From assembly GCA_964504265.1 (NCBI GenBank), contig CAZDEU010000001.1, forward strand, positions 4,412 through 68,411: a stretch of DNA of 64,000 nucleotides. The letters run 5' to 3'. Positions 2,576 through 61,708 of this stretch are shown one piece after another (positions within the stretch are counted from its first letter, which is position 1; every line of letters starts with the position of its first letter). The translations under genes and the position numbers were made by a program. The notes under the pieces were generated by a model that searched no databases, was not told the DNA's origin, and saw only the letters and a list, made by a program, of their open reading frames with translations. The stretch comes from an uncultured Bacteroidales bacterium (GTDB lineage: Bacteria > Bacteroidota > Bacteroidia > Bacteroidales > JAKIYJ01).

Positions 2576-2621
2576 TTTTTAAATTATTTTATATAAATTT
2601 TTATATAAAATAATTTAAAAA
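2576..2621. repeat. A/T palindrome P1 (symmetric type C)
   Basis: AAATTATTTTATATAAA TT TTTATATAAAATAATTT with a flanking T/A extension. Confidence 0.9.
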
Positions 2622-2627
2622 ATTTAT

Positions 2628-3053
2628 TTAGTTTTTATATCCTATTGCTTGAACTTCAACTGTATCTGCTGATATTGCATGAATATTAGTTACTTTACTA
2701 TCTCCAGCAATACCTGAACCTGCTTGAATTTTAAAATCATTTATTGTTGAAACTGCATCAAATTTTATATAAATTTCCGCTGTATCAGCCATATTAAGTA
2801 TAACCCATTTACTACATTCAGCGCCAAAAGATAAATTATTTCCACTGTCTGTATTTGGTGTTAATGTAAATCTTTTCATTATTGTTGTGGTATAAGTTGC
2901 AACTTCAATAGTTCCACCAGCTCCAGCTGTTAATAATTTCCCATCAGAATATACTTTATTTAAAATCTGGTCTGATGAATATAAAGTTGCTCCATAACAA
3001 ATTGATGAAAATATTAAAATAGTTACTAATGAAATGATAAAATTTTTTAACAT
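2628..3053 (-). CDS. small secreted/membrane-anchored protein, function unknown
   Basis: ATG 3053 with AGGAG upstream. N-terminus MLKNFIISLVTILIFSSICYGA is signal-peptide-like. No recognisable domain. Confidence 0.5.
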   Translation of the reverse strand: MLKNFIISLVTILIFSSICYGATLYSSDQILNKVYSDGKLLTAGAGGTIEVATYTTTIMKRFTLTPNTDSGNNLSFGAECSKWVILNMADTAEIYIKFDAVSTINDFKIQAGSGIAGDSKVTNIHAISADTVEVQAIGYKN

Positions 3054-3106
3054 TATTAATTGCTCCTTTTATTATTTTTTATTTTTTAAATTAAAATTTT
3101 TACATT

Positions 3107-3142
3107 AATACGATACTTGAAATTAAATTCAAGTATCGTATT
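3107..3142 (-). terminator. hairpin after the tape measure gene
   Basis: AATACGATACTTGA / TCAAGTATCGTATT, a 14-bp stem. The T-run is weak. Confidence 0.5.
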
Positions 3143-3147
3143 TGTAA

Positions 3148-6100
3148 TTACCTTCTACCTGTTTTTCTTAATATTGCATTTGAAACTGATTCTTCTACCT
3201 TTTTATAAAATTCATTAGCATCAGTATCATTATTTATATTTACATTGCCAAAATTTATACTGATACTTCCTGAATTATTTGATTGAGTTAATGCTGATAA
3301 ATCTGGCATTGAAACTGGTATTGACCTACCATCAGGTAAAGGAACAAATGCTTCATTCATTCCTGATTCGGCTGCTAATACTGCTGTTCCGCCGTTATGT
3401 GCTTTTATTATCCCACCGTTTGCTTGTGGTGTCATTGCAGGACCTAATTGAATATTTCCGCCGCCTACAACGGAACCTGTTGTTAATAAATTTCCAATAC
3501 CTTCCGTTACTGTTTTAAGTTCATTATATTTATTAGTTACTGTTGATAAAGCATTTGAAATACTATTAACTATTCCTTCAATTTTACTGAAAGTGCTTTT
3601 TAATCCTTCGTATGCTGTGTTACCTACTGATTTTATATTATCCCATACTGTTTTAAAAGTTGTTTTAATGAACTCCCATGTTTTGGTCCAGTCAACTCCA
3701 AAAGTTTTTAATATTTTACCAATTGATTCTAATCCTGCTAAAATACCTGTATATAAACCAGCAGGGCCACCGGCAAAAAATGCTACAATAGTTTTAACTA
3801 CTCCACCTAAAACTTGAACACAAACCTCGCCCCAAAATCCAAACTTTTCTCTTGCCCATGCAGCTAAAGCATCAATTATTGGATTTAATACTGCTAAAAT
3901 TAAAAGAGTCCAACCACTTAAAATCATTAATAAACCATCAATAACTCTCTGCAATGTTTTACCTAAATCAACTGTAAACATATTAGCAACATTACCTAAA
4001 AATTGACTTACTGCACCTATCCAATCTCCTGAAACTAATTTTGACATAACACCATTAAAAGCATCAAGCAATAAACCACCGAAAGATATAATTGCAGTTA
4101 TTAATGGTGCTGCTGACTTTGTAAAGTGTTCAATTAAATTAGCAAAAAAAGCATTTTTAGCTAATACTGCTTGTAAATTACTCCAATTAAACCACGAACC
4201 AACTAAAAATAAAAACTTTCCTGCCATAAAATCTAAACCTTTTATAATCATTTTCATTGCAGATGTGCCATATAAAACTACTAAATCGCTAAAACCCTGC
4301 CAATAACTTTCAATAACTGATAATATAACTTGAACTGTAAATAGTTTTGCTACTAATTCAAGTAATTTACCTGTTAAACCTAAAAATACTGATGTTATTG
4401 CACCCATTAAAGTATTTTGTTCTTTTCCGCAAGTTGCTGCCGCGCCGTTGAAAAACTTTGAAAACATTGAACCAATAGCGTCTAAAGCACCTATTAAAAA
4501 ACCTCCTATACCTGCTATTAGAGATGCTAATAAAGTTATAAATATTGGCCCAAAAACTTCACCTAAACCATAACCCATAATTGCAAATGCACCTACTAAT
4601 ACTGGAGTTATTCCGACAACTAAATTTGTTATAGTATCTGCAAATGCTGAAAAGGATGTTGTAAAAACACTTATTAAACTTGCAATCCAGCCTGTAATTG
4701 AATTATCAAACTTAAATGATTTCCACCAATCGCTAAATGCAGTATAAAAACTACTAAACATTGTAGGTATTGTTTTAACAAATATATCCCAACATATCTT
4801 TAATATAGCACCTATACCTGTTATCATATTAACAATACCGGTGCGAGTGCTTTCAGGTAACATTAACCATGCATTATTTAATCCTGTTTTTAAACCATCA
4901 CCTACTTGACTTGCAAATGGTAATAAGGCTGCTTTAACTGCTGATATCGCGGTATTAAACCCAGCGACAATTGCAGAAACTAAACCTATAAAAACTGCAG
5001 GCAACGCTTGACCAATAGTTGAAAATATCGAAGGCATTTTTTCGCTTTCAGTTTGTATTCCTGCATTTGTTGTTTGAACTGCTGCTTGTATTTCTTGGCC
5101 TCCTGTCGCTGCCGCTGCCGCTGCCGGTTTCATAACAGTTGTAAATGCATCTGTAAACGCTGAACTCATTGATAATATTGTTTCTGTTATTTGTGGGAAA
5201 TATGTTTTAGGTATTTCTAATAATGCTTGAAATGCTGCTTCAAAATTTCCAGCACCTATATCTGTAAATGATGATTTTATTAAATCTATTGCGGGCTGTA
5301 AATATTGCTGAACTGCACTATATATTGAATTAAATACAGCAATTAAAGTCATAAAAGATGCAACTAAAACAGGTATTAAAGGAATTAGCGTGGTTTGTAT
5401 AACATTACTTATATTTGTAAATTTAGCAGTTAATTCATCAAAAGTTGGTATAAATGGTTGTATTTGAGTAATTAAATTTTGAAAATATATTCCTAAACTA
5501 CTTAAATATCCGCTTAATTTATTTACTAATTCACTTTCTTTTAATGTATCAAACCATTGCATAAAATATTGTTGTGCTTCGCTTATTAATACACATAATT
5601 TACCTATTATATTGTTTTCCTCTATTATCGCCAAACCTAAAGATAAAAATTTAGCAATTAAATTTGTTATCCATTCTATTGTCGATGTAAATACTGCTGT
5701 TAAACCACTTAATATATCTCCTGTGCCAATTATTACAGGAGTTAAACCTAAAAATTGTAATACTAATCTGGCAATATAATCTGCTACCTGTAAAACATAA
5801 GGTGCCAAAGTCCAACAAGCCGCTTGAATCGCTAAAAATATAGTTACAACACTCATTGCTACTGATGGTAATACTGTTATTATAGCAATAAAAGTATCAA
5901 ATGCTAATTTAACAGTATCTATTGCTGCTGATGATGCAAGCCACACTGCTGCCATTCTCGATACATCTGCAATCATATTTGCGAGAGTTGTTGCTAAACT
6001 TAACATTGTTGTTTGAATTGTAGAGCTTGTTGGAACTAATGTCATTAAATTTTTTATAAATATAGTAAACCCTGATGCTAAATTAATAACTGCGCCATAT

Positions 6101-9202: not shown

Positions 9203-9237
9203 TTTTTATAATTATTTTTATATAAAATAAATTAAAA
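9203..9237. repeat. A/T palindrome P2 (partial, loop type B)
   Basis: TTTTATAATTATTTTTATATAAAATAAATTAAA. The left arm is degenerate. Confidence 0.7.
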
Positions 9238-9244
9238 ATTTGAA

Positions 9245-9280
9245 ATTGCTATTATAAGAAGTAAATCTTATAATAGCAAT
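9245..9280 (-). terminator. terminator after the major tail gene (TATAAGA/TCTTATA family)
   Basis: ATTGCTATTATAAGA / TCTTATAATAGCAAT, a 15-bp stem. Confidence 0.65.
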
Positions 9281-10584: not shown

Positions 10585-10628
10585 GTTTAAATTATTTTAT
10601 ATAAAAATAATTATAAAATAAATTAAAC
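10585..10628. repeat. A/T palindrome P3 (loop type A)
   Basis: GTTTAAATTATTTTATA TAAAAATAAT TATAAAATAAATTAAAC. Confidence 0.9.
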
Positions 10629-12978: not shown

Positions 12979-13022
12979 TTTTAAATTATTTTATATAAAA
13001 ATAATTATAAAATAAATTAAAA
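12979..13022. repeat. A/T palindrome P4 (type A)
   Basis: Same core as P3. Ends about 20 nt before ATG 12960. Confidence 0.9.
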
Positions 13023-13032: not shown

Positions 13033-13071
13033 ATAGTGGGCAATGCTAATTAAATTAACACCGCCCACTAT
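13033..13071 (-). terminator. terminator after the major capsid gene
   Basis: ATAGTGGGC / GCCCACTAT stem, followed by TTTTTATAATTTTT on the minus strand. Confidence 0.7.
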
Positions 13072-15923: not shown

Positions 15924-15967
15924 GTTTAAATTATTTTATAATTATTTTTATATAAAATAATTTAAAC
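15924..15967. repeat. A/T palindrome P5 (loop type B)
   Basis: GTTTAAATTATTTTATA ATTATTTTTA TATAAAATAATTTAAAC, with perfect arms. Confidence 0.9.
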
Positions 15968-16970: not shown

Positions 16971-17014
16971 GTTTAATTTATTTTATAATTATTTTTATAT
17001 AAAATAATTTAAAC
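16971..17014. repeat. A/T palindrome P6 (type B)
   Basis: GTTTAATTTATTTTATAATTATTTTTATATAAAATAATTTAAAC. Confidence 0.9.
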
Positions 17015-17237: not shown

Positions 17238-17292
17238 ATAATCTCCTTATCTTTTTTATTTTATATTTATATAATAATTTTTTAATTTTTTT

Positions 17293-17982: not shown

Positions 17983-18011
17983 ATTATAACATATTATAAT
18001 AAAAATGTAAA
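17983..18011 (-). promoter_or_regulatory. sigma-70-type promoter, cassette A: TTTACA-17 nt-TATAAT with TGn extended -10
   Basis: -35 is the reverse complement of 18006-18011. -10 is the reverse complement of 17983-17988. TGT lies at 17989-17991. Confidence 0.7.
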
Positions 18012-18048
18012 TAGTTTTTATAAAATAATTTAAAATAAAAATAAAAAA

Positions 18049-18075
18049 GCATTGATAACCTTTTATTATCAATGC
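18049..18075. terminator. bidirectional intrinsic terminator, cassette A
   Basis: GCATTGATAA / TTATCAATGC, a 10-bp stem flanked by an A-run and a T-run. Lies just after the nrdG stop. Confidence 0.75.
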
Positions 18076-18095
18076 TTTTCACGGTAAAAATAATT

Positions 18096-18706: not shown

Positions 18707-18750
18707 GTTTAAATTATTTTATATAAATTTTTATATAAAATAATTTAAAC
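18707..18750. repeat. A/T palindrome P7 (type C)
   Basis: GTTTAAATTATTTTATATAAATTTTTATATAAAATAATTTAAAC, between nrdD and nrdG. Confidence 0.9.
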
Positions 18751-18761: not shown

Positions 18762-20711
18762 TTATTTCGTATTATCTTTTAACCATTTTAAATAAGAACC
18801 TGCACCTGATAATTTACTTATTATTTCACTTCCTTTAACTTTCATTAAACAAGGCAACTCATCAACATTATAATAACTTGCCAATGCTAAACCTTTATAT
18901 TCGTGAGTATCAAGTATTTTTACATTTTCATTTAGCTTTCCTGATAATTGTTTTTTAACTGTTTCGCATTTTTCGCAATTAGGTTTCTGAAAAAATAAAA
19001 TCTGTTCGCCGTTATTGAATTCAACATTTTCAAATTGCTGCATACTGAAATCAACTTTTGTTCTATCTTTTAATTCTGCTAATTTGGATTTTGTCCAACC
19101 TGAAATTTGACTAAAATACCCTGTTATTCTTGTTGTGTTATATATGTTATTAGAGCCGCATGACGGGCATATGTCATTTAAACCTTTAAATGTGTTATGA
19201 CAATCTTTACATACTGTCATATCAGGACTATCCGCTGTTTGAACTGCATTTGTATTTAATAATGTTGTTTTATATAATTCTTTTAATGCTTTTGGGTCTG
19301 GCTCTGTATCCCCAAACCAATTATGAATTATAGAACCTGCCTTTATCATTGAAGCAAATTTACTTTGTTTTTCTATTCTGGTTAATATATCAACATTTGC
19401 ATTATAAACTAAATGAACCGAATTAGTATAATATACTTCGCCTTTTTCTATATTACCGTTGACATAATGTTTTGCTTCTTTGAATTGTTGTAAATCTAAT
19501 AATGCTGCCCTTAAACTTAATCCTTCTGCTGGTGTTTCTTCGAGCATAACATTTAGATTATATTTATTTGCTAATTCATCCATTTTTAGTTTTATATATG
19601 CTATTATTTCTAATCCAAATTTTAAGGTTTCTTCTGTTTCATGTAAATTAGTTTTTGTATATTGTTTTACCAATTCATTTAATCCGATTATCCCTATTAA
19701 AAACTTTGCTTCATTCCTTCTTAAATAAGGTTTATTATCAAAGCCTTTTGTTAAAAAACCTAAACAACCTTTTTCACCTTTATCTAATAATTTACATATG
19801 TATTCATATTTCGTTTTATGTCCTTGCATACATAAATCAATTAATCTATCTATTTCACTATACATTTCTTTATGCGTTTTACATTTATAACCAATTCTTG
19901 GTAAATTTATTGTTATATTCTGCCATGCTGAAAATCGCATTTCCTCTGGCGTTTTTATTAATCTTTCTGTTTCTTCTTTTGTTAAATTTATTGACAATCT
20001 GCAGCATTGAGATATCTTAACATCTTCACCTCTGTCGTAAAGTATATATATTGAACCTCTTTTAGAATTTACTCTGCAAGCAAAATCTAATAGTTCATCA
20101 TCAAAACTATTTTTATTTATATGTAATAATATTTTTGGAAATGCGAAGTTTGCTTTATTTGCATCGCCTTTTTCGATTACTTCAAATATAGCTTTTAAAA
20201 ATAATCTCATTTCATTTTCATATTCGGAATAATTTAATCCTGTATATTTTCCACCTGCTCCTCTTGCTGGTGTATTTTTATAGTGGTCTGGAACTTTTAA
20301 ATACATATTGAAATCACTGAATACAACTTGGCCGCCTCGATTTCCGGCTAACTGTGCAAAGCTAAAAATCAAATGCTGTGCAACCTGTTTAATTTGATAA
20401 TATTCTAAATCTTTTAGTAGTGGTGCGAAAAACATATTAACACATTCAAACCCAATAGCGCCAGAAAATAAACCTTGTAAATAATTTGCAAAACATTGAA
20501 TATGATTAACTAATGTTTGAGCGTGTTTTGCGGGTTCACTATGACTAACATTTGGTAATTTTAAACCATATCTTTTTATATATTCAATAGAATTACCAGA
20601 ACAATTATGCGTATGTATATTATTGACTAATAAAGTATGTGATGATGTTGTAATATCATATACCTTATTAACTGTTTTAATTTTTTTTATTGATATTATT
20701 TTATTTAACAT
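18762..20711 (-). CDS. nrdD: NrdD C-terminal fragment: 36-aa intein C-piece + C-extein + C-terminal redoxin-like domain
   Basis: Starts MLNKIISIKKIKTVNKVYDITTSSHTLLVNNIHTHN|CSGNSIEY (intein block G HN|C). Glycyl-radical motif TRITGYF (Gly codon ~19119-19121). Zn ribbon CKDC...CPSCG. Terminal CEKC thioredoxin-fold-like segment. Confidence 0.85.
   Translation of the reverse strand: MLNKIISIKKIKTVNKVYDITTSSHTLLVNNIHTHNCSGNSIEYIKRYGLKLPNVSHSEPAKHAQTLVNHIQCFANYLQGLFSGAIGFECVNMFFAPLLKDLEYYQIKQVAQHLIFSFAQLAGNRGGQVVFSDFNMYLKVPDHYKNTPARGAGGKYTGLNYSEYENEMRLFLKAIFEVIEKGDANKANFAFPKILLHINKNSFDDELLDFACRVNSKRGSIYILYDRGEDVKISQCCRLSINLTKEETERLIKTPEEMRFSAWQNITINLPRIGYKCKTHKEMYSEIDRLIDLCMQGHKTKYEYICKLLDKGEKGCLGFLTKGFDNKPYLRRNEAKFLIGIIGLNELVKQYTKTNLHETEETLKFGLEIIAYIKLKMDELANKYNLNVMLEETPAEGLSLRAALLDLQQFKEAKHYVNGNIEKGEVYYTNSVHLVYNANVDILTRIEKQSKFASMIKAGSIIHNWFGDTEPDPKALKELYKTTLLNTNAVQTADSPDMTVCKDCHNTFKGLNDICPSCGSNNIYNTTRITGYFSQISGWTKSKLAELKDRTKVDFSMQQFENVEFNNGEQILFFQKPNCEKCETVKKQLSGKLNENVKILDTHEYKGLALASYYNVDELPCLMKVKGSEIISKLSGAGSYLKWLKDNTK
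18765..19040 (-). other. thioredoxin/glutaredoxin-like domain fused to the NrdD C-terminus
   Basis: EQILFFQKPNCEKCETVKKQL, with CxxC codons at 18966-18977. Lies downstream of the glycyl-radical motif. Confidence 0.5.
20604..20711 (-). other. split-intein C fragment (36 aa)
   Basis: VYDITT...LLVNNIHTHN followed by Cys+1. The length is typical of natural split-intein C pieces. Confidence 0.7.
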
Positions 20712-41379: not shown

Positions 41380-41395
41380 TATAATCACCCTCAAA

Positions 41396-42271: not shown

Positions 42272-42295
42272 TGTTACTTGTTATCTTTAAACAAA

Positions 42296-42340
42296 GTTTA
42301 AATTCTTTTATATAAAAATAAGTATAAAAGAATTTAAAAC
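42296..42340. repeat. A/T palindrome P13 (type A, with a compensatory C:G pair)
   Basis: AAATTCTTTT ... AAAAGAATTT. c42305 pairs with g42330 where other copies have A:T. Confidence 0.9.
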
Positions 42341-42342
42341 CC

Positions 42343-43869: not shown

Positions 43870-43996
43870 AATTGTTTATCTCCTTTATGTTAAAGTTTTA
43901 ATTTAAAATTACAAAATTTTAAATTAAAAAAATCTAATTTTCAATCATTGAAAGATATATAAAAGGTAAAAAACATAAACATATTAAACAATAAAA

Positions 43997-44033
43997 AATA
44001 CTATTATAAGACAATAAATCTTATAATGGTATT
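43997..44033. terminator. hairpin (same family)
   Basis: AATACTATTATAAGA / TCTTATAATGGTATT followed by TTTT. Confidence 0.55.
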
Positions 44034-44077
44034 TTTAAATTATTTTATATAAAAATAATTATAAAATAATTTAAATC
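44033..44077. repeat. A/T palindrome P14 (type A)
   Basis: Overlaps the stop codon of 44071..44448. Confidence 0.85.
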
Positions 44078-44448
44078 ATTGCTGGAATTATGTTACTATT
44101 ATTATCTACAGTAAAAAATAACGGTAATTGAAATTGTATTCTCCAATGTGTTGTATTTTTAAAATCATTATTTAAGTAATCCGTTAATAATGGCCTTATT
44201 AAATCGTATTTTTTAAAATTTTCAATTACTATATTATGTAAAATATTTGCTCGTTTCATATCATTATTATTTATTGCTTTTATAATTTCGTCCATTAAAT
44301 ATTTTTGTAAATCAATTATCTTTTCTAAATAATCAAATATTTCAGTTACTTGTTGTCTGTTAAAAAATATTTGCTGTAATCGTTTAATAAACCAATATGC
44401 GGTAATAATAAAAAATATTAATAATATCGTGGCAATTATATCAGCCAT
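44071..44448 (-). CDS. hypothetical N-terminally membrane-anchored protein
   Basis: MADIIATILLIFFIITAYWFI is a TM helix. 125 aa. Confidence 0.4.
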   Translation of the reverse strand: MADIIATILLIFFIITAYWFIKRLQQIFFNRQQVTEIFDYLEKIIDLQKYLMDEIIKAINNNDMKRANILHNIVIENFKKYDLIRPLLTDYLNNDFKNTTHWRIQFQLPLFFTVDNNSNIIPAMI

Positions 44449-44755: not shown

Positions 44756-44832
44756 ATAAACATATTAAACAATAAAAAAATACCACTATAAGATTATTTC
44801 TTATAATGGTATTTTTTAAATTTCATATTAGA

Positions 44833-44878
44833 GTTTTTAAATTATTTTATATAAAAATTTATATAAAATAAATTAAAC
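44833..44878. repeat. A/T palindrome P15 (type C-like)
   Basis: AAATTATTTTATATAAAAATTTATATAAAATAAATT. Confidence 0.85.
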
Positions 44879-44880: not shown

Positions 44881-45429
44881 TTATTTAATATTTGGTTTCT
44901 TAAACTTCTTAATTTCTTTTGGTTCGACATTTGCGATTTTGTTATCTGGTGGAATTGTTTTCTTTATTTTACCTGTATGTTCGATATGCTCGGTTGGAAT
45001 ATCAAACATCGGATTATCCGATAATTTGATTTTTCCATCTGATATTGTTGTGGTTGACATTTCATTTATTCTTAATTTCTGGTCTAACTCTTTTGCTTTA
45101 ACTTTTTTAAGTTTATGTAAACAGTCGGAGCATAAACCTGCAAGTGTGTCTGTGTAAACCTGGTCGACGATTTTACCGCATTTAGTGCAAGTATATTTAT
45201 TCTCGTTAAACCGTTGGAGATTATTATTCTTAATAAATTCCATTATATAATGTTTTGGTTTACCTGTTAATTCTGATATTAATGTAACATTGAAATTGTT
45301 ATCAAATATCTGTTTAATAAAATGTCGTCTAACTTCCTTATTTTCTTTATCTTTTTCCATTGAACATTGAACGCATAAACCATTGCTTGTTAAATTGTCT
45401 AAATCTCTTTTACATCTTCCACATAACAT
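44881..45429 (-). CDS. double zinc-ribbon / HTH protein
   Basis: CGRC...CVQC, then the HTH-like VTLISELTGKPKHYIMEFIKN, then CTKCG...CSDC. Confidence 0.45.
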   Translation of the reverse strand: MLCGRCKRDLDNLTSNGLCVQCSMEKDKENKEVRRHFIKQIFDNNFNVTLISELTGKPKHYIMEFIKNNNLQRFNENKYTCTKCGKIVDQVYTDTLAGLCSDCLHKLKKVKAKELDQKLRINEMSTTTISDGKIKLSDNPMFDIPTEHIEHTGKIKKTIPPDNKIANVEPKEIKKFKKPNIK

Positions 45430-45464
45430 TTTTTAATTCCTCCGTTTAATTTTTATTTTAATAC

Positions 45465-45500
45465 TTTAAATTATTTTATATAATTTAAAATATTAAAACG
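45465..45500. repeat. A/T palindrome P16 (degenerate)
   Basis: Left arm TTTAAATTATTTTATATA is intact. The right arm is diverged. Confidence 0.5.
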
Positions 45501-46248: not shown

Positions 46249-46280
46249 GTTTAAATTATTTTATATAAAATAATTTAAAC
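46249..46280. repeat. A/T palindrome P17 (32-nt perfect palindrome, no loop)
   Basis: GTTTAAATTATTTTATATAAAATAATTTAAAC equals its own reverse complement. Confidence 0.9.
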
Positions 46281-47535: not shown

Positions 47536-47564
47536 ATTATAACATATTATAATAAAAATGTAAA
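47536..47564 (-). promoter_or_regulatory. sigma-70-type promoter, cassette C (identical core)
   Basis: -35 at 47559-47564, -10 at 47536-47541, 17-nt spacer. Confidence 0.7.
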
Positions 47565-47601
47565 TAGTTTTTATAAAATAATTTAAAATAAAAATAAAAA
47601 A

Positions 47602-47628
47602 GCATTGATAACCTTTTATTATCAATGC
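47602..47628. terminator. bidirectional intrinsic terminator, cassette C
   Basis: GCATTGATAA / TTATCAATGC flanked by A- and T-runs. Confidence 0.75.
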
Positions 47629-47660
47629 TTTTGATACTAAAAATATTTTTAAAATAATTA

Positions 47661-48210: not shown

Positions 48211-48254
48211 TTTTAATTTATTTTATAATTATTTTTATATAAAATAATTTAATC
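48211..48254. repeat. A/T palindrome P18 (type B)
   Basis: Overlaps the stop codon of the Mor-like gene. Confidence 0.85.
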
Positions 48255-48596
48255 TATTTTTGCTTTTTGCTCTTCTAATCTTTTGTAATAATCTCTTATA
48301 TTATTATAAATCTTATATATAATAGTTTCAGAACAATGAAATACTTTTGATGCTTCATTATAAATATCTTTTAAACTTTTTGCTCCTCTTTTCGTTCTCT
48401 GGATTTCAACATAATTATAAATCCTATAATCACGATTACAATTTTTTATATCTGCTATACTCGGAATTGCGATTGTCGTGCCTCCGAATATTAGTATAAA
48501 TTGTTTTAATTGTTCTGGACTTAATATCTCTATCAAATCTACAAAACTTGAATCCGCTAAATACATATAAAGTATGTCTGATGTTTCTAATTGCAT
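48249..48596 (-). CDS. Mor-like transcriptional activator
   Basis: FGGTTIAIPSIADIKNCNRDYRIYNYV...IYNEASKVFHCSETIIYKIYNNI resembles the Mor family (GG..iyIP...R...I...y.lS...iy.I). Confidence 0.5.
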   Translation of the reverse strand: MQLETSDILYMYLADSSFVDLIEILSPEQLKQFILIFGGTTIAIPSIADIKNCNRDYRIYNYVEIQRTKRGAKSLKDIYNEASKVFHCSETIIYKIYNNIRDYYKRLEEQKAKID

Positions 48597-50366: not shown

Positions 50367-50406
50367 TTTAAGTATTCCTTTATAAATTTTTATTTATATA
50401 ATAAAA

Positions 50407-50871: not shown

Positions 50872-50915
50872 TTTTAAATTCTCCTTTATAATTTTTTATT
50901 TATATAATAAAAACT

Positions 50916-52094: not shown

Positions 52095-52138
52095 TTTTAA
52101 ATTATTTTATATAAAAATAATTATAAAATAAATTAAAC
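52095..52138. repeat. A/T palindrome P19 (type A)
   Basis: Ends 1 nt before the polA stop codon. Confidence 0.9.
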
Positions 52139-54495: not shown

Positions 54496-55158
54496 TTATG
54501 CATTATTAGTAGTTTGTTTCTCTAATTCTTTTCGCAACATGATATCAAACATTTTATGTAATTTGGGTTCAGATTTACTTTTCAACTTCTTACATAAATC
54601 AATGAAATCATAAAACAAATCTTCATCTATTGGAATTGCTAAATCTTCTAATAATATTTCAAACTTCTTATCATCATTTTTTGTCTGCTCATCATATTTA
54701 TTATCAAAACTAGACCAGGTAAAATTAGTTAATTTTACTAAATCTTCAATATCACTTTTACCATGAAAACAGGTCAATGCTAAATCATCAACTGTATATT
54801 TATCTGATAATTCTTTATAAATTTCAGCCAATTTTAATGTATTTGTTTCAAACCTACTTTCATTTAATTCAATACATTTTCTCTTGGCTTCTGATTCTTC
54901 AAGTTTACCGTGATTATAACATAAAACTTTTTTAATATCTGTAATTTGTTTTATTGCTTTTAATCTGTGGTTACCATCAATTACTTCAAATTTATCTTTT
55001 GATATTTCCCGAACATTTAAGTTAACAATTAAACCATTTCTTTTAATGTTATTTACTAATTTATCTATCTGTTTATTAGTTCCATCTTCTTTATAATTCC
55101 ATTCAGCATAAACTAATTTTGATACATCAATTAATTGAAAATTACTATCCATTAACAA
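54496..55158 (-). CDS. ParB/Srx-fold (ParB N-terminal domain-like) protein
   Basis: EVIDGNHRLKAI is the ParB-NTD DGxHR motif. Confidence 0.6.
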   Translation of the reverse strand: MLMDSNFQLIDVSKLVYAEWNYKEDGTNKQIDKLVNNIKRNGLIVNLNVREISKDKFEVIDGNHRLKAIKQITDIKKVLCYNHGKLEESEAKRKCIELNESRFETNTLKLAEIYKELSDKYTVDDLALTCFHGKSDIEDLVKLTNFTWSSFDNKYDEQTKNDDKKFEILLEDLAIPIDEDLFYDFIDLCKKLKSKSEPKLHKMFDIMLRKELEKQTTNNA

Positions 55159-55823
55159 TTACCTCCAAAAATTTTAATTATTTCATTGTTTCTTGAAATA
55201 TCATATTTATTACTTCTTGCCCTATCAAGATAATTTAATTTCAATGTTTCATTTATTTCAAAATCAGGTTCAATATTATTCATTTTAAGGGCTATATATT
55301 TTCTAACACAACTACCGCAATTACCGCATGGTTTATCTAATTTATGATAACATGAAACTGATTCAAATAATAAATTTTTATCATATCCAGAATCTATAAA
55401 CCATTTTATTATATCAGTTTTACTCATCTGCCAAAATGGTGAATCAATTTTAATTCTCGTTCTTGAAAATTTATTTAATATTTCGGTCATATCAGTAAAT
55501 GCTTCTGGATTCTTATCTTCTACCATATCACCTTTTATCCCCGCTATAAATATCTCATCACCATACCAAGAACCAATTAATGCAAGTAACAAATTTCTAT
55601 TTGGAACGAAAGCATTAACATCACTATTATAAAATAAATTTAGATTAGTTATTTCATGAATAGTTAAGTCCATAGATAATTTAGTAGCTATATTTTTTAT
55701 TGATTTAATTTCTTTCTCAGAATATTCTGTATGTAAATCAATATAAATACATTTAGGTTTATCCAAATAAAACCAGGCAATTAATGAATCAATTCCTCCT
55801 GAAAATAAAAGTATTTTTGACAT
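55152..55823 (-). CDS. queC: 7-cyano-7-deazaguanine (preQ0) synthase-like PP-loop ATPase
   Basis: LLFSGGIDS PP-loop, VPNRN, SCY...CGNCGSCVRK zinc cluster. Confidence 0.8.
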   Translation of the reverse strand: MSKILLFSGGIDSLIAWFYLDKPKCIYIDLHTEYSEKEIKSIKNIATKLSMDLTIHEITNLNLFYNSDVNAFVPNRNLLLALIGSWYGDEIFIAGIKGDMVEDKNPEAFTDMTEILNKFSRTRIKIDSPFWQMSKTDIIKWFIDSGYDKNLLFESVSCYHKLDKPCGNCGSCVRKYIALKMNNIEPDFEINETLKLNYLDRARSNKYDISRNNEIIKIFGGNC

Positions 55824-56141
55824 TTAATTATCTCCTTTCATTATTATATCTGACCATGTATCGTTTATATTTATTGCTTTATCATCTATATAATAATCTG
55901 CTAATAACTTATTAAAAATTATTTCATGATACTTTATATTATTATCTGATAACCATGTTATAGTTAAATCTTTATCTTCTATATATCTTGAAGTATAAAT
56001 AATTATTCTAAACCCATTAGTATACAAAGTATTTAATTTATTTATATTATTTATATTTGGTGTACATTTAGAAAATTCTGAATAATGAATTTTAGGTTCA
56101 TTTGTTAAACAACCGTCTAAATCAAAAGCAATAATTTTCAT
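55824..56141 (-). CDS. small HAD-superfamily hydrolase-like protein
   Basis: MKIIAFDLDGCLT is HAD motif I. 105 aa. Confidence 0.5.
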   Translation of the reverse strand: MKIIAFDLDGCLTNEPKIHYSEFSKCTPNINNINKLNTLYTNGFRIIIYTSRYIEDKDLTITWLSDNNIKYHEIIFNKLLADYYIDDKAININDTWSDIIMKGDN

Positions 56142-56144
56142 TAA

Positions 56145-57260
56145 CTACTCCTTTAAAGTATTATCAACATTAATTAACTCATCTATAATATTTATTTGTT
56201 GCGGGCACATTTTCAAACATCTTCCACACTTTTTACAACTTGATGCTTTATCTTGTTTTTCCATTAAACAATTATAACTGAATTTTGAATTATTTACCTC
56301 GTTATATATATTATAATTGTTATATAATGTAAAATTATAAGGAATATTTACACCGCATTTCAATGTTAAACAATACCCGCAATCAGTGCATCTAACTTTC
56401 TTCATTTTTTCAAATTCTTTTTTTATATTATTACATAATTTATAATCATTATCATTAAATGTATATTTATTATTTATAATATCTAAATTATACTTCAATT
56501 GTTGTATATTAGTTAAACCACTTAATAATAATGATACTTCATTAATATTCCAAATATAGTTGAAAGCTAATCTTATTGGGTTATTATTATTTATATTGAA
56601 CATGTTGGTAATATTTTCTGGTAAATTATTAACCAAATAACCACCATGTAATGGTTCCATTATAGCTATATCCATATTTTTAGTTTTTGCATATTTTATA
56701 CCTTCTATTCCGGCCTGAAAATTTATATCCATATAATTATGTTGCACCAAACAAAAATCAAATTTATATGTATCTATGATATGTTTGAATACTTCATTTC
56801 TATCATGAAATGAAAAACCTATATTACTTATCTTTCCTTGTGCTTTTGCTTCTAACATATATTGATATAGATTATTATTTATAACATCATTGAAAGTATA
56901 TTTATTTAGAGCGTGAAATAAATAATAATCTATATGATCTGTATTAAAATTTTTTAATTGTGTTTCTAATATATTAAAAAAATCATTACGGCTATTACAT
57001 AACCACACGGGCAATTTAGTTGAAATAAACATCTTATCGCGTATACTTTTATTTATTGCGCTACCTATAATTTTTTCACTATCATTATTACCATATATAT
57101 AGGCAGTATCAAAATAATTTATACCATTATCTACTGCAAAATTAATGAATTCTGATAATTTATTTTTTGTATCTGGTTGAGTATAATCCCAACGCATTAG
57201 TCCTGCACCGAATATTGAAATATCATTACCGCTAAATTTTTTATAATACATTAAAATCAT
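56145..57260 (-). CDS. aldo/keto reductase fused to a 2x[4Fe-4S] ferredoxin-like C-terminus
   Basis: GINYFDTAYIYGNNDSEKIIG and ISTK are AKR motifs. CTDCGYC and CKKCGRCLKMCP are Fe-S motifs. The start could be M4 (57251). Confidence 0.75.
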   Translation of the reverse strand: MILMYYKKFSGNDISIFGAGLMRWDYTQPDTKNKLSEFINFAVDNGINYFDTAYIYGNNDSEKIIGSAINKSIRDKMFISTKLPVWLCNSRNDFFNILETQLKNFNTDHIDYYLFHALNKYTFNDVINNNLYQYMLEAKAQGKISNIGFSFHDRNEVFKHIIDTYKFDFCLVQHNYMDINFQAGIEGIKYAKTKNMDIAIMEPLHGGYLVNNLPENITNMFNINNNNPIRLAFNYIWNINEVSLLLSGLTNIQQLKYNLDIINNKYTFNDNDYKLCNNIKKEFEKMKKVRCTDCGYCLTLKCGVNIPYNFTLYNNYNIYNEVNNSKFSYNCLMEKQDKASSCKKCGRCLKMCPQQINIIDELINVDNTLKE

Positions 57261-57264
57261 CCCT

Positions 57265-58077
57265 TTAGAATATTATATTTTCTCTTAAACCTTTACAATC
57301 ACTACATTTATTTGGTATTATTATTGGAGAATTATCTATCTCTTCAGTTATATTACCAAGTAAAAAATCATTATTATAACTCTTTCTACAACAAGAATAT
57401 ATATCACCATTATAATTGATAACGCCTAAATAATCTTTAACATAACATAAATCATTATTTGATTTATTATCTTTCCAAAAATTATACAAATCTATATTTT
57501 TATATTGAGGTATATTTTCGGCATACTCTGAACCAAAAAGTGGAATTGTTACAATATCATTACTTATTTCTGAAAAATCATTTATTAATTTCCTTGTTAT
57601 ATTCTCAGAATTATTATTTATTAAAGGTACTTTAATTCTTATATTATTATATCTCTTAATATTTGTTCTTATTATATTTTTCAGATGATTCAAAGCTTTA
57701 TCAATATATATATTTGTTAATTCTGTACTACTTACTGGGTGATATGTTATATTTATAAATTCTGCATTATCTAATAACCACAATATATCTGCTTGACTAT
57801 ATTTTAATATTTGTGTTAAATTAGTGCTTAATCCAAATTTTATGTTATTATTTATTATTTCTTTAAAAAATTCAAAACAATTTGAATTCAATAATGGTTC
57901 TCCACCACCTGATATCGATATATATGGTATGTTATTTTTCTTAATAAATTCTATCGCTCTGACAAATGTAGTCTGAGTCATCATATCTGATTTATTATCT
58001 CGATATTTACGAGTAAAACAATAATAACAATGTAAATTACATACATTACTGAAATGTAGTTCAATTGATTTTATCAA
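57265..58077 (-). CDS. radical SAM protein with Cys-rich (SPASM/twitch-like) C-terminus
   Basis: CNLHCYYC (CxxxCxxC), SGGGEPLL, and C-terminal CC...CSDCKG. Confidence 0.75.
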   Translation of the reverse strand: MIKSIELHFSNVCNLHCYYCFTRKYRDNKSDMMTQTTFVRAIEFIKKNNIPYISISGGGEPLLNSNCFEFFKEIINNNIKFGLSTNLTQILKYSQADILWLLDNAEFINITYHPVSSTELTNIYIDKALNHLKNIIRTNIKRYNNIRIKVPLINNNSENITRKLINDFSEISNDIVTIPLFGSEYAENIPQYKNIDLYNFWKDNKSNNDLCYVKDYLGVINYNGDIYSCCRKSYNNDFLLGNITEEIDNSPIIIPNKCSDCKGLRENIIF

Positions 58078-58874
58078 TGTTTTATACCTCTACTTTCCCA
58101 TAATTTAGTTATTTGTTCAATTCTACTGATATTGAGTTTTGTATCTTTATTATAAACATATATCTGATGTTCAGTATTTCGTCTATCTAAACTACTAATT
58201 GAATCAAATCTTGAAACTCCATATCTAAATATTGACCCAACAGAAGATGAATCACAAGAATAAAAAGGAAAATACTCAAGTACACTATAAGTAGTTTCTC
58301 CAAAACCATGTATCTTCTTATTTATTATCTTCTTATATCGGCCATCACTTAAACAACTCTTGTAAAAATCTTTTCTTGCACTTTTATGATAACTTTTTTC
58401 ACTTGAAGTTCCAATATAATCATAATTATCTAAATAATATTCTAGAAAATCCATTGACTCACCTTGATGAAATACTGGTAAAAACTTTAATTTTGTTATC
58501 TTTTCTAATTCCTTTATATTATCTAATGATTTTTGTGCTGATAATTCTTTATTTCTTGCATTCAAATAATCTAAGTTTGTATACACTATACTTTCACAAT
58601 TTTTTACAAAATTTGTTTTCTGTAACGATAATACAAATTCTGCATATTCATCTAATGATATTGATAAATTTTGAGTATATGCTGAATATGCCCCTGAATC
58701 TACGATTATCGATGGTTTATCTACTTTACTAAAAAATTCCTCAAGATAATCTAATTTATTTTTATAATAAAAATATGAAAATAAATAATTCTTCTGACCA
58801 CTAGTTAGGCCTAATTCATTTATATCTTGACCGCCTTTACATTTAATTATTGTCATTACAGTAAAATACTTCAA
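58074..58874 (-). CDS. dpdA: DpdA-like DNA guanine transglycosylase (TGT superfamily)
   Basis: IIVDSGAYSAY, LPVFHQGES..LEYY, YIGTSS, HGFGET and SCDSSS resemble phage DpdA as I recall it. Start placed at TTG 58874 (SD GGAGG 8 nt upstream). Confidence 0.6.
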   Translation of the reverse strand: MKYFTVMTIIKCKGGQDINELGLTSGQKNYLFSYFYYKNKLDYLEEFFSKVDKPSIIVDSGAYSAYTQNLSISLDEYAEFVLSLQKTNFVKNCESIVYTNLDYLNARNKELSAQKSLDNIKELEKITKLKFLPVFHQGESMDFLEYYLDNYDYIGTSSEKSYHKSARKDFYKSCLSDGRYKKIINKKIHGFGETTYSVLEYFPFYSCDSSSVGSIFRYGVSRFDSISSLDRRNTEHQIYVYNKDTKLNISRIEQITKLWESRGIKH

Positions 58875-58894
58875 AACAAATACCTCCAAATAGA

Positions 58895-59449
58895 TTACAT
58901 TATTTTATGTATCAAATCCAAAAATTCATTCTTGACCTGACTTTCTGAAAATACTCCTCGTATAGCACTAGTTATCATTTTAGTATTATTCTTCTTAACA
59001 CCTCTTGCCGACATGCAATTATGATGCGCCTCAATAACAACCATACAACCTTTCGGTGCTAAATATTTCATTATTGAATCGGCAATATCAGAAGTCATTC
59101 TTTCTTGTATTTGAAGTCTTTTAGCAAAGCAATCTACTAATCTTGCTAATTTACTTACACCAATAACTTTCTTATTTGGTATATAACCAATATGACATAT
59201 TCCATTAAATATCTGTATATGGTGTTCACAATTTGAATTAAAATCAATATCTTTCAATATTATCATTTCATTGTAATTACCATAACTTTCAAATGTTTTT
59301 GATAATATATCTTCTGGTTTCTGTTTATAACCTTCTGTTAATTCTTCCATTGCTTTTATAAATCTCTTAGGCGTTTCTAATAAACCTTCCCTATTAACAT
59401 CTTCACCAAGATATGTTAATATTTCTTTGAATTTATTTTCTACTTCCAT
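58895..59449 (-). CDS. folE: GTP cyclohydrolase I
   Basis: LGEDVNREGLLETPKRF and CEHH motifs. ATG 59449 aligns with typical FolE N-termini. An alternative ATG at 59515 has the better SD (AAAGGAAG) but overlaps queE by 76 nt. Confidence 0.85.
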   Translation of the reverse strand: MEVENKFKEILTYLGEDVNREGLLETPKRFIKAMEELTEGYKQKPEDILSKTFESYGNYNEMIILKDIDFNSNCEHHIQIFNGICHIGYIPNKKVIGVSKLARLVDCFAKRLQIQERMTSDIADSIMKYLAPKGCMVVIEAHHNCMSARGVKKNNTKMITSAIRGVFSESQVKNEFLDLIHKIM

Positions 59450-60027
59450 TCTGCTAATTTGTGAACTTGTGGAATTACTCTCGAGTTTGGTAATATTTTT
59501 TGAATTTCTTGACATTTTAAAAAACTTCCTTTCAGATTTGATTCTGGTTGTAATATTAGAGTAACATTTGATGGTACTTTAAATTTTAATACATCATTAA
59601 CATTATTTTTTTCATTTATAACTATTTTTACTTCTTTTGCAAATTTTAAATTATTAATCACATTTTTATTATAGTTTTTAGGGCTTATTGTTAACCAATC
59701 AATTTCATTATATATACTTTCTGTTCCTGACCCATTAGATTCCATTGAAACTGTATAACCTTTATCTTTTAAATTATTAATTAACTCAATTAAATTATCT
59801 TGTATTACAGGTTCACCGCCTGTTAATATAATATTTTTAGATTCAAATTTATTTTGTATAATATAATTTAAAATTTCTACTGATGTCATTTCTTGATAAT
59901 CTTGATGGTTTGTATCACAAAAAGAACATTTTAAATTACATCCTGAAAATCTTATAAATATACTTAAAATACCTAATTTAAGTCCTTCACCTTGAATTGA
60001 TTGGAATATTTCATTTACTTTAAACAT
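59440..60027 (-). CDS. queE: 7-carboxy-7-deazaguanine synthase (radical SAM)
   Basis: FQSIQGEG, FIRFSGCNLKCSFCDT, and C-terminal IPQVHKL. Confidence 0.85.
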   Translation of the reverse strand: MFKVNEIFQSIQGEGLKLGILSIFIRFSGCNLKCSFCDTNHQDYQEMTSVEILNYIIQNKFESKNIILTGGEPVIQDNLIELINNLKDKGYTVSMESNGSGTESIYNEIDWLTISPKNYNKNVINNLKFAKEVKIVINEKNNVNDVLKFKVPSNVTLILQPESNLKGSFLKCQEIQKILPNSRVIPQVHKLAEWK

Positions 60028-60039
60028 TAACTTTCTCCT

Positions 60040-60402
60040 TTATATATTAATAAAAATGCAAGAACATTCAGGCGATTCAAATAATTCAATATAATTTAAT
60101 TTCAAATCTTTATTTATATCATGTAACTCTTTTGACATTAATTCGTATAAATGCTTAGATAAATTTTCAGCTGTCGGATTAAAATCAACTTTTTCATTTA
60201 AATATTGATGGTCGGGTAATATATTATCAATTATTTTTTTAGCTTCTTTGAAATCTAATAACATACCACAATTATCTAATTTTGTCCCACCTATTGCAAA
60301 AATTACTTCCCATCTATGACCATGTAATCTTGAACAAGCACCTACATAATCATTTAATTTATGGGCTGCGTCAAAATGACTTTTGATTTTTAATTGATAC
60401 AT
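60040..60402 (-). CDS. queD: 6-carboxy-5,6,7,8-tetrahydropterin synthase
   Basis: HFDAAHKL...CSRLHGHRWEV pattern. 120 aa. Confidence 0.85.
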   Translation of the reverse strand: MYQLKIKSHFDAAHKLNDYVGACSRLHGHRWEVIFAIGGTKLDNCGMLLDFKEAKKIIDNILPDHQYLNEKVDFNPTAENLSKHLYELMSKELHDINKDLKLNYIELFESPECSCIFINI

Positions 60403-60414
60403 TTTTAACTCCTT

Positions 60415-60777
60415 TTACTGTATATTTTTTTTATTTCCAGTTATTTTATATTTTTCTGATAAACTAAAACATTCTTTTATAATATCATCATAATATTTCA
60501 TACCTGAAATAAATTGAGCGTCTATAACGCTTAATTTTTTATCATTTATTTGTTTAATTAAATCAGATTTAATTACTTTTGCTATTGTATATTTTTCATC
60601 AATAAAAGATTCCATATTTTCTAAAACATCTCGTTTAAATGATTCTTTTTTAGGTTTCAAATCATATTTTTCTATCAGGTCTTTCAAATCTTTAATATCA
60701 ATACCTAATTCCGCAGATGTCTTATTCAAATCATATTTATATTTAACTAATATATCTTTTAATTCTTGTGGTTTCAT
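60415..60777 (-). CDS. hypothetical protein
   Basis: 120-aa ORF. Confidence 0.4.
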   Translation of the reverse strand: MKPQELKDILVKYKYDLNKTSAELGIDIKDLKDLIEKYDLKPKKESFKRDVLENMESFIDEKYTIAKVIKSDLIKQINDKKLSVIDAQFISGMKYYDDIIKECFSLSEKYKITGNKKNIQ

Positions 60778-60780
60778 ATA

Positions 60781-61638
60781 TTATTCTCCTTTCAATTGCA
60801 TAAAGCAATCTAATAATTGTAATGTTTTAACTGTTTGAATGCTCGTTCTATAATCAGCTGCTGCTAAAATATTGATTTGTTTTGTATTATTTTTTTGTTT
60901 TAATAATTCTTCAAATAGTTTTGAAATTATTACCTTATTATCATATTTATATAATATTTTATCTTCAAATTCTTTTATATCTAATGATAATATTTTGTAA
61001 TTATTTATATTTTCTGCTATTTCAACACCGCTTATTGTTGATTGCAATAAATTAATCGCCTGTCGCATATCGCCGTTTGCATTCTGCGTTATTGCGGATA
61101 TATCTTTTTCTGATAATTCAGTATTTTCTTGTTCAATAATGTATTGTAATCTTTCTTTTACTACATCATCATTTAATTTATCAAATCTATAAATAACACA
61201 CCTTGATTTTATAGGGTCTATAATATTTTCTGAATTTGCACATAATATAAATCTTGCTGTTGATGAAAATGCTTCCATTGGTTTTTTTAAAGCATCTTGA
61301 GCATTTGCTGTAATGCGGTCGCACTCGTCGAGCATTATTATTCTTGGAAAGTTAGAATTTATTGATTTTTTACTTGCGAAATCTTTAACTTTTGTTCTGA
61401 TTATTTCTATACCGTTTTCATCACTTGAATTTATTTCTAAAAAATTTGACTTGTAATCTTCTTTAAATAAATATTTTATAAATAATTGTGCTAATGTTGT
61501 TTTACCACAACCAGCAGGGCCAATAAATAGTAAATTAGGTATATTTTTTGATTTTTTAAAATTAATTAATGATTCTATTATATTATCTCTACCTATAACC
61601 TCTGCTAATGTTTTTGGCCTATATTTTTCACTTAACAT
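60781..61638 (-). CDS. RFC small-subunit-like AAA+ clamp loader
   Basis: KYRPKTLAEVIG, GPAGCGKTT (Walker A), MLDECD (Walker B), KSRC (SRC motif). Confidence 0.85.
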   Translation of the reverse strand: MLSEKYRPKTLAEVIGRDNIIESLINFKKSKNIPNLLFIGPAGCGKTTLAQLFIKYLFKEDYKSNFLEINSSDENGIEIIRTKVKDFASKKSINSNFPRIIMLDECDRITANAQDALKKPMEAFSSTARFILCANSENIIDPIKSRCVIYRFDKLNDDVVKERLQYIIEQENTELSEKDISAITQNANGDMRQAINLLQSTISGVEIAENINNYKILSLDIKEFEDKILYKYDNKVIISKLFEELLKQKNNTKQINILAAADYRTSIQTVKTLQLLDCFMQLKGE

Positions 61639-61664
61639 ATTTTAAATATATCCTTTCAATTTAT

Positions 61665-61708
61665 TTTTAAATTATTTTATAATTATTTTTATATAAAATA
61701 AATTAAAC
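61665..61708. repeat. A/T palindrome P20 (type B)
   Basis: The right arm contains the stop codon of 61703..62272. Confidence 0.9.

Follow-up and report, generated by a model that had tools for sequence, protein, structure and literature searches.

A clade-specific palindromic repeat at the gene junctions of an uncultured siphovirus-like phage, probably a protein-binding DNA site

The 64,000-nt stretch of DNA considered here (positions 4,412 to 68,411 of contig CAZDEU010000001.1, assembly GCA_964504265.1, filed under an uncultured Bacteroidales bacterium; hereafter the window) comes from the genome of a siphovirus-like phage with a Mu-type portal, an E-type capsid protein, and tube and tape-measure proteins, which also encodes a family A DNA polymerase, NrdD, a dUTPase, a Mor/C-family protein and a 3343-aa MuF/ankyrin protein. 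Its gene junctions are occupied by some 20 copies of an A/T palindrome that is in most cases 44 nt long. Comparison with related phages suggests that this palindrome is the window lineage's own elaboration of an apparently old family of junction elements, which differs from clade to clade and has been made uniform within any one genome. The element is probably a conserved DNA 'punctuation mark' to which a protein binds, and the more specific reading that we prefer, as yet tentatively, is that it constitutes a two-fold-symmetric DNA site for a dimeric regulator encoded by the phage.

With up to two mismatches allowed, the arm GTTTAAATTATTTTATA matches the window 43 times where 1.49 matches are expected, and 43 matches were reached in none of 100 shuffled sequences, which bears out a preliminary description of the window that had singled out the repeat family as non-random. 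The census gives 18 full and two partial copies, every one of them intergenic. Seventeen of the full copies are 44-nt elements and the remaining one is a loop-less perfect palindrome of 32 nt (46249-46280, as already described); the partial ones lie at 9203-9240 and, in degenerate form, at 45464-45500. The positions listed previously hold apart from two, as the copies said to start at 44833 and 45465 span 44835-44878 and 45464-45500, respectively. Lone arms are found at 41714-41730 and, as had been noticed before, 5' of the -35 box in three promoter cassettes of 97 nt (17983-18079, 27767-27863 and 47536-47632). Two independent Logan assemblies from other runs (L003 and L004) are 100% identical to the window here, so that the element is not an assembly artefact; both end within junction repeats, as does the contig of a relative (L033).

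The window has a G+C content of about 25% and all convincing genes are on the minus strand, which makes the 'right arm' of the preliminary description the upstream arm. Among 72 gene junctions, 37 have a gap of at least 40 nt; the element is present in 18 of these 37 and is essentially the entire gap at six junctions. On the coding strand every copy lies 3' of a stop codon and 5' of either the next ribosome-binding site (RBS) or a separate, G+C-containing terminator hairpin. The upstream stop precedes the element by 0-3 nt in about ten cases and lies within the arm (GTT TAA) in four (genes 61703, 48249, 44071 and 30363), in agreement with the earlier statement that the arm abuts or contains the stop codon, and a Shine-Dalgarno sequence follows 3-10 nt downstream of ten copies. 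At four copies (44835, 44033, 42296 and 15924) the next feature downstream is a hairpin distinct from the element and equipped with a U-tract, whereas 12979 and 9203 show the opposite arrangement, in which the element comes after the terminator.

Following transcription through the window, the copy at 61665-61708 holds the stop of gene 61703-62272 and precedes the RBS of the next gene, the copy at 52095-52138 begins 2 nt after the stop of the DNA polymerase gene and again precedes an RBS, and the copy at 48211-48254 comes directly after the Mor/C-like gene. Copy 44835-44878 lies between a zinc-ribbon/helix-turn-helix (HTH) gene and the terminator hairpin 44774-44810; copy 44033-44076, with a stop codon in its arm, abuts the hairpin 43993-44030 upstream of the portal gene; and copy 42296-42339, which carries a C:G double change, follows the portal stop and is itself followed by the hairpin 42236-42267. 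Copy 42053-42096 is situated within a 948-nt non-coding region, about 35 nt downstream of a sigma-70-like promoter, and copy 41396-41439 has the RBS of the 3343-aa MuF/ankyrin gene 3 nt downstream. A stop codon within the arm and then an RBS are found at 30325-30368, and a stop 2 nt upstream and then an RBS at 22702-22745; the copy at 24188-24231 is downstream of the dUTPase gene and that at 18707-18750 is in the NrdD/NrdG junction. Copy 16971-17014 lies within a region of variable small open reading frames (ORFs), copy 15924-15967 upstream of an A/T hairpin with U-tract and of the scaffold gene, copy 12979-13022 after the terminator of the capsid gene (13033-13071) and 6 nt before the next RBS, copy 10585-10628 upstream of the tail-tube gene, and the partial copy 9203-9240 after the hairpin of the tube gene (9245-9275). 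The last copy, 2576-2621, is upstream of an ORF on the minus strand (1-2551; at least 850 codons) with a signal-peptide-like start, which runs off the left end of the window, and the first 2 kb of the window have a higher G+C content (36%) and an opposite GC skew.

As the preliminary description stated, about half of the copies have the loop TAAAAATAAT and the others its complement, while all genes are on one strand. A second loop allele (TAAAAATTTA/TAAATTTTTA) is likewise present in both orientations, and nine copies share an identical 44-mer, which runs in one direction in five of them and in the opposite direction in four. Within the stem, 13 of 17 pairs are invariant across the window copies, 12 of 17 copies have a mismatch at pair 7:38, invariably between one AATTT arm and one AAATT arm, and roughly one copy in two (8 of 15 distinct sequences) is unpaired at pair 1:44. 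Because of the fixed 7:38 mismatch and the frequent 1:44 mismatch the window element is an asymmetric unit present in both orientations rather than a perfect palindrome. Since loop alleles are flipped with the arms unchanged, we infer exchange between arms at the DNA level. The C42305/G42330 double change in copy 42296 is real and the sole compensatory event among the copies, but as a single event it is within the chance of shuffled controls, and no pairing measure exceeded these controls in the covariation test. Evidence for selected pairing is therefore weak, and the earlier proposal that dyad symmetry is under selection does not follow from this genome alone, in which most pairs do not vary and about two thirds of the copies keep the same mismatch. 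As to predicted RNA folds, the commonest window variant folds at -6.9 to -7.9 kcal/mol (z -0.9 to -1.9) and the five symmetric copies at about -16 kcal/mol (z -8), the 7:38 mismatch halving stability, whereas the version of the element in a first group of relatives shows no folding (-2.4 kcal/mol, z 0) and that in a second group has barely any structure (-4.3 kcal/mol). A U-tract on the coding strand does not consistently follow the element, the 3' flank being usually A-rich or an RBS.

These relatives belong to two clades. The first consists of IMG/VR contig 3300026159_000232 (102 kb; hereafter R), contig 3300026181_000110 and the assemblies L031, L033 and L034, whose portals are about 89% identical among themselves and about 60% identical to the window portal, with a capsid 80% identical to that of the window; the second is represented by L001, with a portal 64% identical to that of the window. 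Close relatives among cultured phages were not found, as megablast of 12 kb against the INPHARED phages gave no match and tblastn with the portal returned distant portals of Bacillus, Staphylococcus and actinophages alone, at 35% identity or less. In R the element is a 27-mer (TAAATTTATTATAATTATTTAATAAAAT; pattern AATTTATTATAATTATTTAATAAAA) with 24 exact copies in the contig and in no other viral contig, 19 in sense and five in antisense orientation relative to transcription, as compared to about half each in the window. L001 contains six copies of a palindrome of 22-28 nt, AAATTTATTA(A/T)AATATTTTAATAAA(TTT), three of which are perfect, and its pattern is multi-copy nowhere among the viral contigs but in L001 itself. 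The arms TTTATTA-N8-TAATAAA are common to R and L001, and the left arm and loop of the window element, AATTTATT-TT-ATAATTATTT, align with AATTTATTATAATTATTT of the R 27-mer. The pattern search in relatives called for by the preliminary description thus reveals a clade-wide family at orthologous junctions with a different sequence in each clade. Such a concerted change of all copies in a genome, indels included, requires copying or gene conversion, and two lineages, those of the window and of L001, seem to have moved towards a perfect palindrome independently. The near-identical genomes compared (L003/L004 with the window; L008 with L010) show no differences. The junction repeat was not found in the more distant relatives L005, L006, L007 and L009 (44% G+C). 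Exact-pattern scans with the window palindrome gave no match in viral contigs or bacterial genomes and one unrelated chance match in metagenomes. The R-type core has 15 matches in bacterial genomes, all single-copy and in unrelated metagenome-assembled genomes (MAGs), consistent with chance, which rules out that it is a host REP family. No bias emerged when the window was searched for oriented half-sites that stand alone. As for the other content of R, one 27-mer is located 4 nt upstream of a tRNA-Gln gene that is followed by tRNA-Pro (L016, a locus of R; locus coordinates 214-507), a tRNA scan of the window finding no tRNA, and R encodes DnaB, a Toprim primase, a pol III beta-type clamp, ThyX and three DNA methylases besides RecA and a YqaJ exonuclease.

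Not only the element but also its positions are shared between clades. Window and R have the same junction occupied at seven sites. The junction after the portal is occupied in all six lineages (window, R, L031, L033, L034 and L001) and thus in all three clades, and the junction after the Mor-like gene in the window, R and L001, in all three in one orientation. Window and R also share the junctions after NrdD, after the dUTPase gene and, with the same orientation, after the capsid terminator, as well as those before the scaffold gene and after the zinc-ribbon gene, where a terminator follows the element in both phages. Orientation is kept at most informative shared sites, and at the tube and tape-measure junctions the element is displaced by one gene between window and R. 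Most R loci were retrieved through the motif itself, and the unbiased comparison of window and R is the 21-kb locus L010 alone, in which three to five of seven element sites are shared with the window; there, junction sharing may be called suggestive. Differences in gene content between window and R adjoin elements: R has three extra ORFs after the NrdD element, and from the early promoter to the scaffold gene the two phages have entirely different small ORFs but unchanged punctuation. In the window, gene 44071-44448 has an element and a terminator on either side.

Promoters and terminators of these phages appear to be specified by motifs separate from the palindrome. The three 97-nt cassettes (minus strand) are near-identical and consist of a terminator hairpin, an A/T-tract identical to one palindrome arm, TTTACA, a 17-nt spacer and TGTTATAAT; the A/T-tract would resemble the UP-element consensus of Estrem et al. 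(1998). The cassettes are conserved in R and L001 and represent early promoter cassettes that are PeSL-like in the strict sense. A second, oriented motif is TTATTATATAAATAAA, which includes the T4 late-promoter octamer TATAAATA and matches the window eight times with at most one mismatch (0.55 expected), always on the sense strand and always 9-23 nt upstream of a Shine-Dalgarno sequence; exact copies are at 63193-63208, 50895-50910 and 50389-50404 and copies with one mismatch at 58755-58770, 31350-31365, 24980-24995, 22766-22781 and 17262-17277, all on the minus strand. This 16-mer is identical in all three clades, being exact in R (nine copies) and L001, was not found in the structural-gene region of the window, and probably represents a class of -35-less promoters. 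As to termination, true-terminator hairpins contain G+C, have a U-tract and fold at -14.7 to -24.7 kcal/mol. Five of them form a repeat family of their own, ACCATTATAAGA-N7-TCTTATAATGGTAT plus U-tract, of about -15 kcal/mol (44774-44810, 43993-44030, 42236-42267, 41646-41677 and 9245-9275), often adjoin the palindrome and are likely to be the true intrinsic terminators. The composite junction of R contains, in this order, a stop codon, the 27-mer, a terminator, the TATAAATA motif and an RBS. Promoter and terminator motifs keep a fixed orientation, unlike the palindrome, which can be regarded as a fourth motif class that can be inverted, varies from clade to clade and goes with stop codons.

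What could such an element do? The 44-nt palindrome would be the lineage's version of an old gene-junction family in an A/T-rich, siphovirus-like phage clade with genomes of about 100 kb, and would mark the borders between gene blocks. On the reading that we prefer, a dimeric phage DNA-binding protein, diverged between clades, would recognise the element and, once bound, modulate the passage of host RNA polymerase or its re-start at the junction, acting as a symmetric, 'stoperator-like' roadblock or as an operator. Ectopic gene conversion would keep the copies within one genome identical, and identical copies would offer, as a by-product, portable homology for the swapping of gene cassettes. 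The occurrence of both orientations and the two independent moves towards a palindrome fit symmetric recognition, and a DNA site for a dimer that diverged with the clades is suggested by the two-fold symmetry of all three versions together with the indifference to orientation and the lack of a conserved RNA structure. The first candidate for the binder is the Mor/C-family protein (48249-48596, minus strand), the N-terminus of which is about 85-90% conserved across the three clades, with the predicted recognition helix as the most variable segment (CSETIIYKIY, CSQTNIKIIY and CSQSQVQTIY). The element follows its gene in all three clades, and the variation of the helix by clade parallels the clade-specific element, as would be expected for a co-diverging binder. 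The second candidate is the zinc-ribbon protein (44881-45429, minus strand), which has an HTH-like segment, as read by eye, and is 36% identical to its R orthologue. A ParB_N protein (54496-55158) was rejected, as it more likely belongs to a neighbouring 7-deazaguanine cluster read by eye, and a 251-aa ORF beside the Mor-like gene has no sequence match in Pfam, PHROG or PDB and no homologues by word search. For the Mor-like protein, searching PDB by sequence gave no informative result. It may be added that the Mor/C-family protein co-occurs with a phage beta-type clamp (in R; Pfam DNA_pol3_beta_2), that a gene at 60781-61638 resembles by eye a clamp-loader gene, and that Mor/MuC-family activators were reported in 2026 to use the beta clamp (PMC12867686).

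Several observations speak against a regulator-binding site. The R copies are over 25-29 nt either exact or absent, a degree of uniformity that a dimeric HTH site would not require and that copied or converted repeats typically show. Thirteen of the 19 R sense copies start with the in-frame TAA of the upstream gene, a feature that a DNA operator does not explain. The order of element and terminator is mixed, the element coming first at four window sites (44835, 44033, 42296 and 15924) and seven R sites, while the terminator leads at two window sites (12979 and 9203) and at the capsid junction of R. The geometry differs from that of the Mor and C sites of Mu, which are 16-bp dyads centred at -43.5 (PMC2582627, PMC4390567), and the candidacy of the Mor-like protein, resting on three sequences, is a guess. 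Finally, the element holds TATAAT or TATAAAAT at a TATAAATA-like distance from start codons, which keeps a promoter role alive.

The all-or-none copies of R speak for the main rival, which we consider real if rather unlikely, of a REPIN- or PeSL-like repeat that is kept by recombination and tolerated solely in the slot between stop codon and RBS or terminator, gene conversion by phage RecA and YqaJ-type functions or an enzyme copying and homogenising it. At similarly modest likelihood such a repeat would have little dedicated molecular function and serve as homology linker for gene-cassette swapping. The joint remodelling of all copies in each clade, the window form as an inverted doublet with a fixed mismatch marker, the flipping of both loop alleles ('flip/flop') with the inter-arm exchange that it implies, the RecA and YqaJ genes of R and the gene-content differences next to elements would all be accommodated. 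The same is true of the fusion of stop and element in R, which suggests that ORF and element move as a unit, and PeSLs are a published precedent (PMC2839356, PMC4122927). Yet junctions and orientations are conserved at a portal identity of about 60%, which argues for long-term retention under selection, target-site duplications are not visible, and the Pfam matches include no transposase, RAYT or integrase, neither in the window ORFs scanned nor in about 80 kb of R, for which the 25 commonest of 33 families were reported. Moreover, multi-copy matches in bacterial genomes or other viral contigs are lacking, as are the GTAG/CGTC tags that define REPs (PMC3733652). A more active variant, to which we would give little weight, supposes that gene cassettes of a lytic phage are mobile and that the elements are their borders, with a stop-fused element at the end of each ORF. 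By an equally speculative extension, a phage-encoded activity on the hairpin or cruciform form would copy, flip and exchange cassettes among junctions and between co-infecting phages; if true, a virus would carry an integron- or REPIN-like system. Integron attC sites themselves were rejected, since the stop fusion is seen but both orientations occur, and no integrase is among the 25 commonest of 33 families reported for R. Tagged REP/RAYT elements were rejected for want of a GTAG/CGTC tag in the consensus and of a Y1/RAYT match among the Pfam matches reported (64 of 105 kb of the window genome; for R the same 25 families). As regards a MITE, inverted repeats are present, and no target-site duplication is visible in the flanks of the element.

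In a scheme of a factor-dependent promoter of the -10 type, which we regard as improbable, host RNA polymerase together with a phage factor would read the TATAAT or TATAAAAT of the element, as in the late promoters of Mu. The hexamer is perfect in R-type copies, with TATAAAAT in the right arm of the window element, and the distance from TATAA to the start codon (31-39 nt in R, 33-43 nt in the window) is near the 30-36 nt of the TATAAATA motif. The element is also the sole repeated motif of the structural-gene region, follows the terminators of the capsid and tube genes, where a re-start promoter is expected, is accompanied by an encoded Mor/C-family activator and has about 20-24 copies per genome, as is typical of a phage promoter class. 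However, an intrinsic terminator directly follows seven of the 19 R sense copies and four window copies, in an order conserved between window and R, the promoter slot of the composite R junction is already filled by the TATAAATA motif, and five of 24 copies in R and about half of those in the window are antisense. In addition, the element has neither -35 box nor TG extension while the clear promoters of the phage have both, and there is no usable -10 hexamer for which its dyad would be centred at -43.5. A sigma-70 promoter was rejected, the -10-like hexamer standing alone and in both orientations and the genuine cassettes being TTTACA-17-TGTTATAAT, as was a Mor/C-dependent promoter of the Mu type, for which the position 34 nt downstream of the dyad centre would be at or beyond the start codon in copies directly before a gene. 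At the level of RNA, phage T7 uses intercistronic RNase III sites, and a transcribed A-U hairpin of 17-19 bp could be cut by RNase III, stabilise message ends or modulate a terminator or translation, which we likewise think doubtful. The stable fold of the five symmetric window copies, the location in transcribed junctions straight after stops, the end of translation at the element edge in 13 of 19 R sense copies, as if the RNA were kept ribosome-free, and the indifference of a perfect RNA duplex to orientation speak for it; the retention of a U:U or A:A mismatch in 12 of 17 window copies, the essentially unstructured homologues in R and L001, covariation no higher than in shuffled controls, the lack of an Rfam match at gathering thresholds and the inversion, which a single-stranded RNA motif would not tolerate, speak against it. 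An RNase III hairpin in the strict sense, with a stable stem of about 20 bp and covariation, does not fit, as 12 of 17 copies reach about -7 kcal/mol, the R type has a z of 0 and covariation is not in excess. Least probable by far is a weak or bidirectional intrinsic terminator, for which the hairpin after stop codons and the A/T runs beside some copies can be cited; the stem is devoid of G+C, a consistent coding-strand U-tract is missing, and the version in relatives is unable to fold. The terminator scan, which needs at least three G-C stem pairs, did not report the element and finds separate U-tract hairpins, often adjoining. An intrinsic terminator was rejected on anatomy, with its all-A/T stem and a 3' flank that is A-rich or an RBS. 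Among the roles offered in the preliminary description, the operator for a dimeric regulator and the REP/MITE-like element therefore survive, and the RNA hairpin, RNase III site or weak terminator is disfavoured by the weak fold of the commonest variant, the non-folding 27-mer, the missing U-tract and the presence of separate terminators.

The element is of a known kind, that of dispersed intergenic two-fold-symmetric phage repeats; new are the fusion to stop codons, the clade-specific concerted remodelling and the growth into a long palindrome. The non-temperate Cluster O mycobacteriophages carry more than 30 copies of a 17-bp dyad repeat, TGTTCGGNNNCCGAACA, attributed to a dimeric binding protein (PMC4351075). 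In both cases there are tens of dispersed copies with two-fold symmetry, mostly off promoters, in a phage that is not obviously temperate, and protein binding is putative, but the Cluster O repeats are short, G+C-rich, to about one third within genes and untied to stop codons, and neither clade-specific remodelling nor growth into a long palindrome has been reported for them. Stoperators of Cluster A phages (PMC4351075, PMC3203893) are, together with start-associated sequences (PMC3203893), among the closest described cases: they comprise 20-30 sites in short intergenic regions, a block of transcription has been proposed for them, and their sequence co-varies with the phage's own DNA-binding protein, which is putative here. 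They are, unlike the palindrome, asymmetric, oriented with transcription and bound by the immunity repressor of a temperate phage; a stoperator proper was rejected, as the site is symmetric or invertible and no integrase or repressor is among the ORFs scanned. With the PeSLs of T4-type phages, which are terminator plus early-promoter cassettes (PMC2839356, PMC4122927), the element shares conserved intergenic boundary repeats, variable neighbouring ORFs and a possible use as modular exchange points. It is shorter, occurs in both orientations and has neither a -35/-10 pair nor a G+C stem, and was therefore not classified as a PeSL although its flanking of variable ORFs does fit. REP, BIME and REPIN sequences are, like the element, imperfect palindromes, doublets of 35-45 nt, extragenic yet transcribed, often just after stops, found in both orientations, genome-specific and subject to concerted evolution; here, GTAG/CGTC tag (PMC3733652) and RAYT gene were not found, the copies number about 20 and are phage-borne, and relatives have, as the ancestral form, a singlet whose dyad is weak. 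The Mor and C sites of Mu are 16-bp imperfect dyads centred at -43.5 in promoters with a -10 and no -35 (PMC2582627, PMC4390567), to which the encoded Mor/C-family protein, the two-fold symmetry and the -10-like hexamer without -35 correspond, whereas the dyad overlaps or lies downstream of the hexamer, there are 20-24 sites instead of one to four, and many precede terminators. T7 RNase III sites are similar as hairpins between the cistrons of long polycistronic phage transcripts and differ in being individually distinct, oriented, imperfect stems of about 20 bp, while the copies here are identical and invertible and their homologue in relatives does not fold.

For annotation, these findings provide a junction grammar of an uncultured phage clade, consisting of stop, element, optional terminator, optional TATAAATA motif and RBS, from which the early promoter cassettes stand apart. 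The clade-specific DNA element and the clade-specific recognition helix of a Mor/C-family protein make a testable pair; this family has recently been tied to the sliding clamp (PMC12867686), and these phages encode their own clamp. The element is, furthermore, a clean case of concerted evolution of short dispersed viral repeats at conserved positions, which bears on modular exchange in phages, and junction repeats fragment short-read and metagenomic assemblies of these phages.

Some further features of the window deserve mention. The non-coding region of 948 nt between the portal gene and the 3343-aa gene (41395-42342) contains three palindromes, the lone arm, two terminator hairpins and two sigma-70-like promoters, for example TTGACA-16-TATAGT at 42162-42135, and may be a regulatory hub or a source of small RNA. 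A third A/T motif, TTTTAATTTAAAATTTTG(T)AATTTTAAATTAAA(A)C, is found upstream of the portal RBS (43880-43920) and of element 41396 (41440-41500). The 3343-aa protein itself (31363-41394) has an N-terminal MuF domain and many ankyrin repeats, the MuF gene of L031 coding for 552 aa, and may be an ejected polyvalent protein. NrdD is split in the window (18762-22453): ORFs 21557-22453 and 18762-20711 match the N- and C-terminal parts of the single 791-aa NrdD of R, and between them lies an ORF of 296 aa (20701-21591) with a weak zf-FCS match, which may be an inserted homing-endonuclease-like gene. In the region 54496-60402, translations judged by eye resemble GTP cyclohydrolase I, QueD, QueE and QueC, and Pfam matches identify a ParB_N-domain protein (54496-55158) and an aldo-keto reductase/4Fe-4S protein (56145-57260), so that this region, with its Que-type members recognised by eye, looks like a 7-deazaguanine DNA-modification module.

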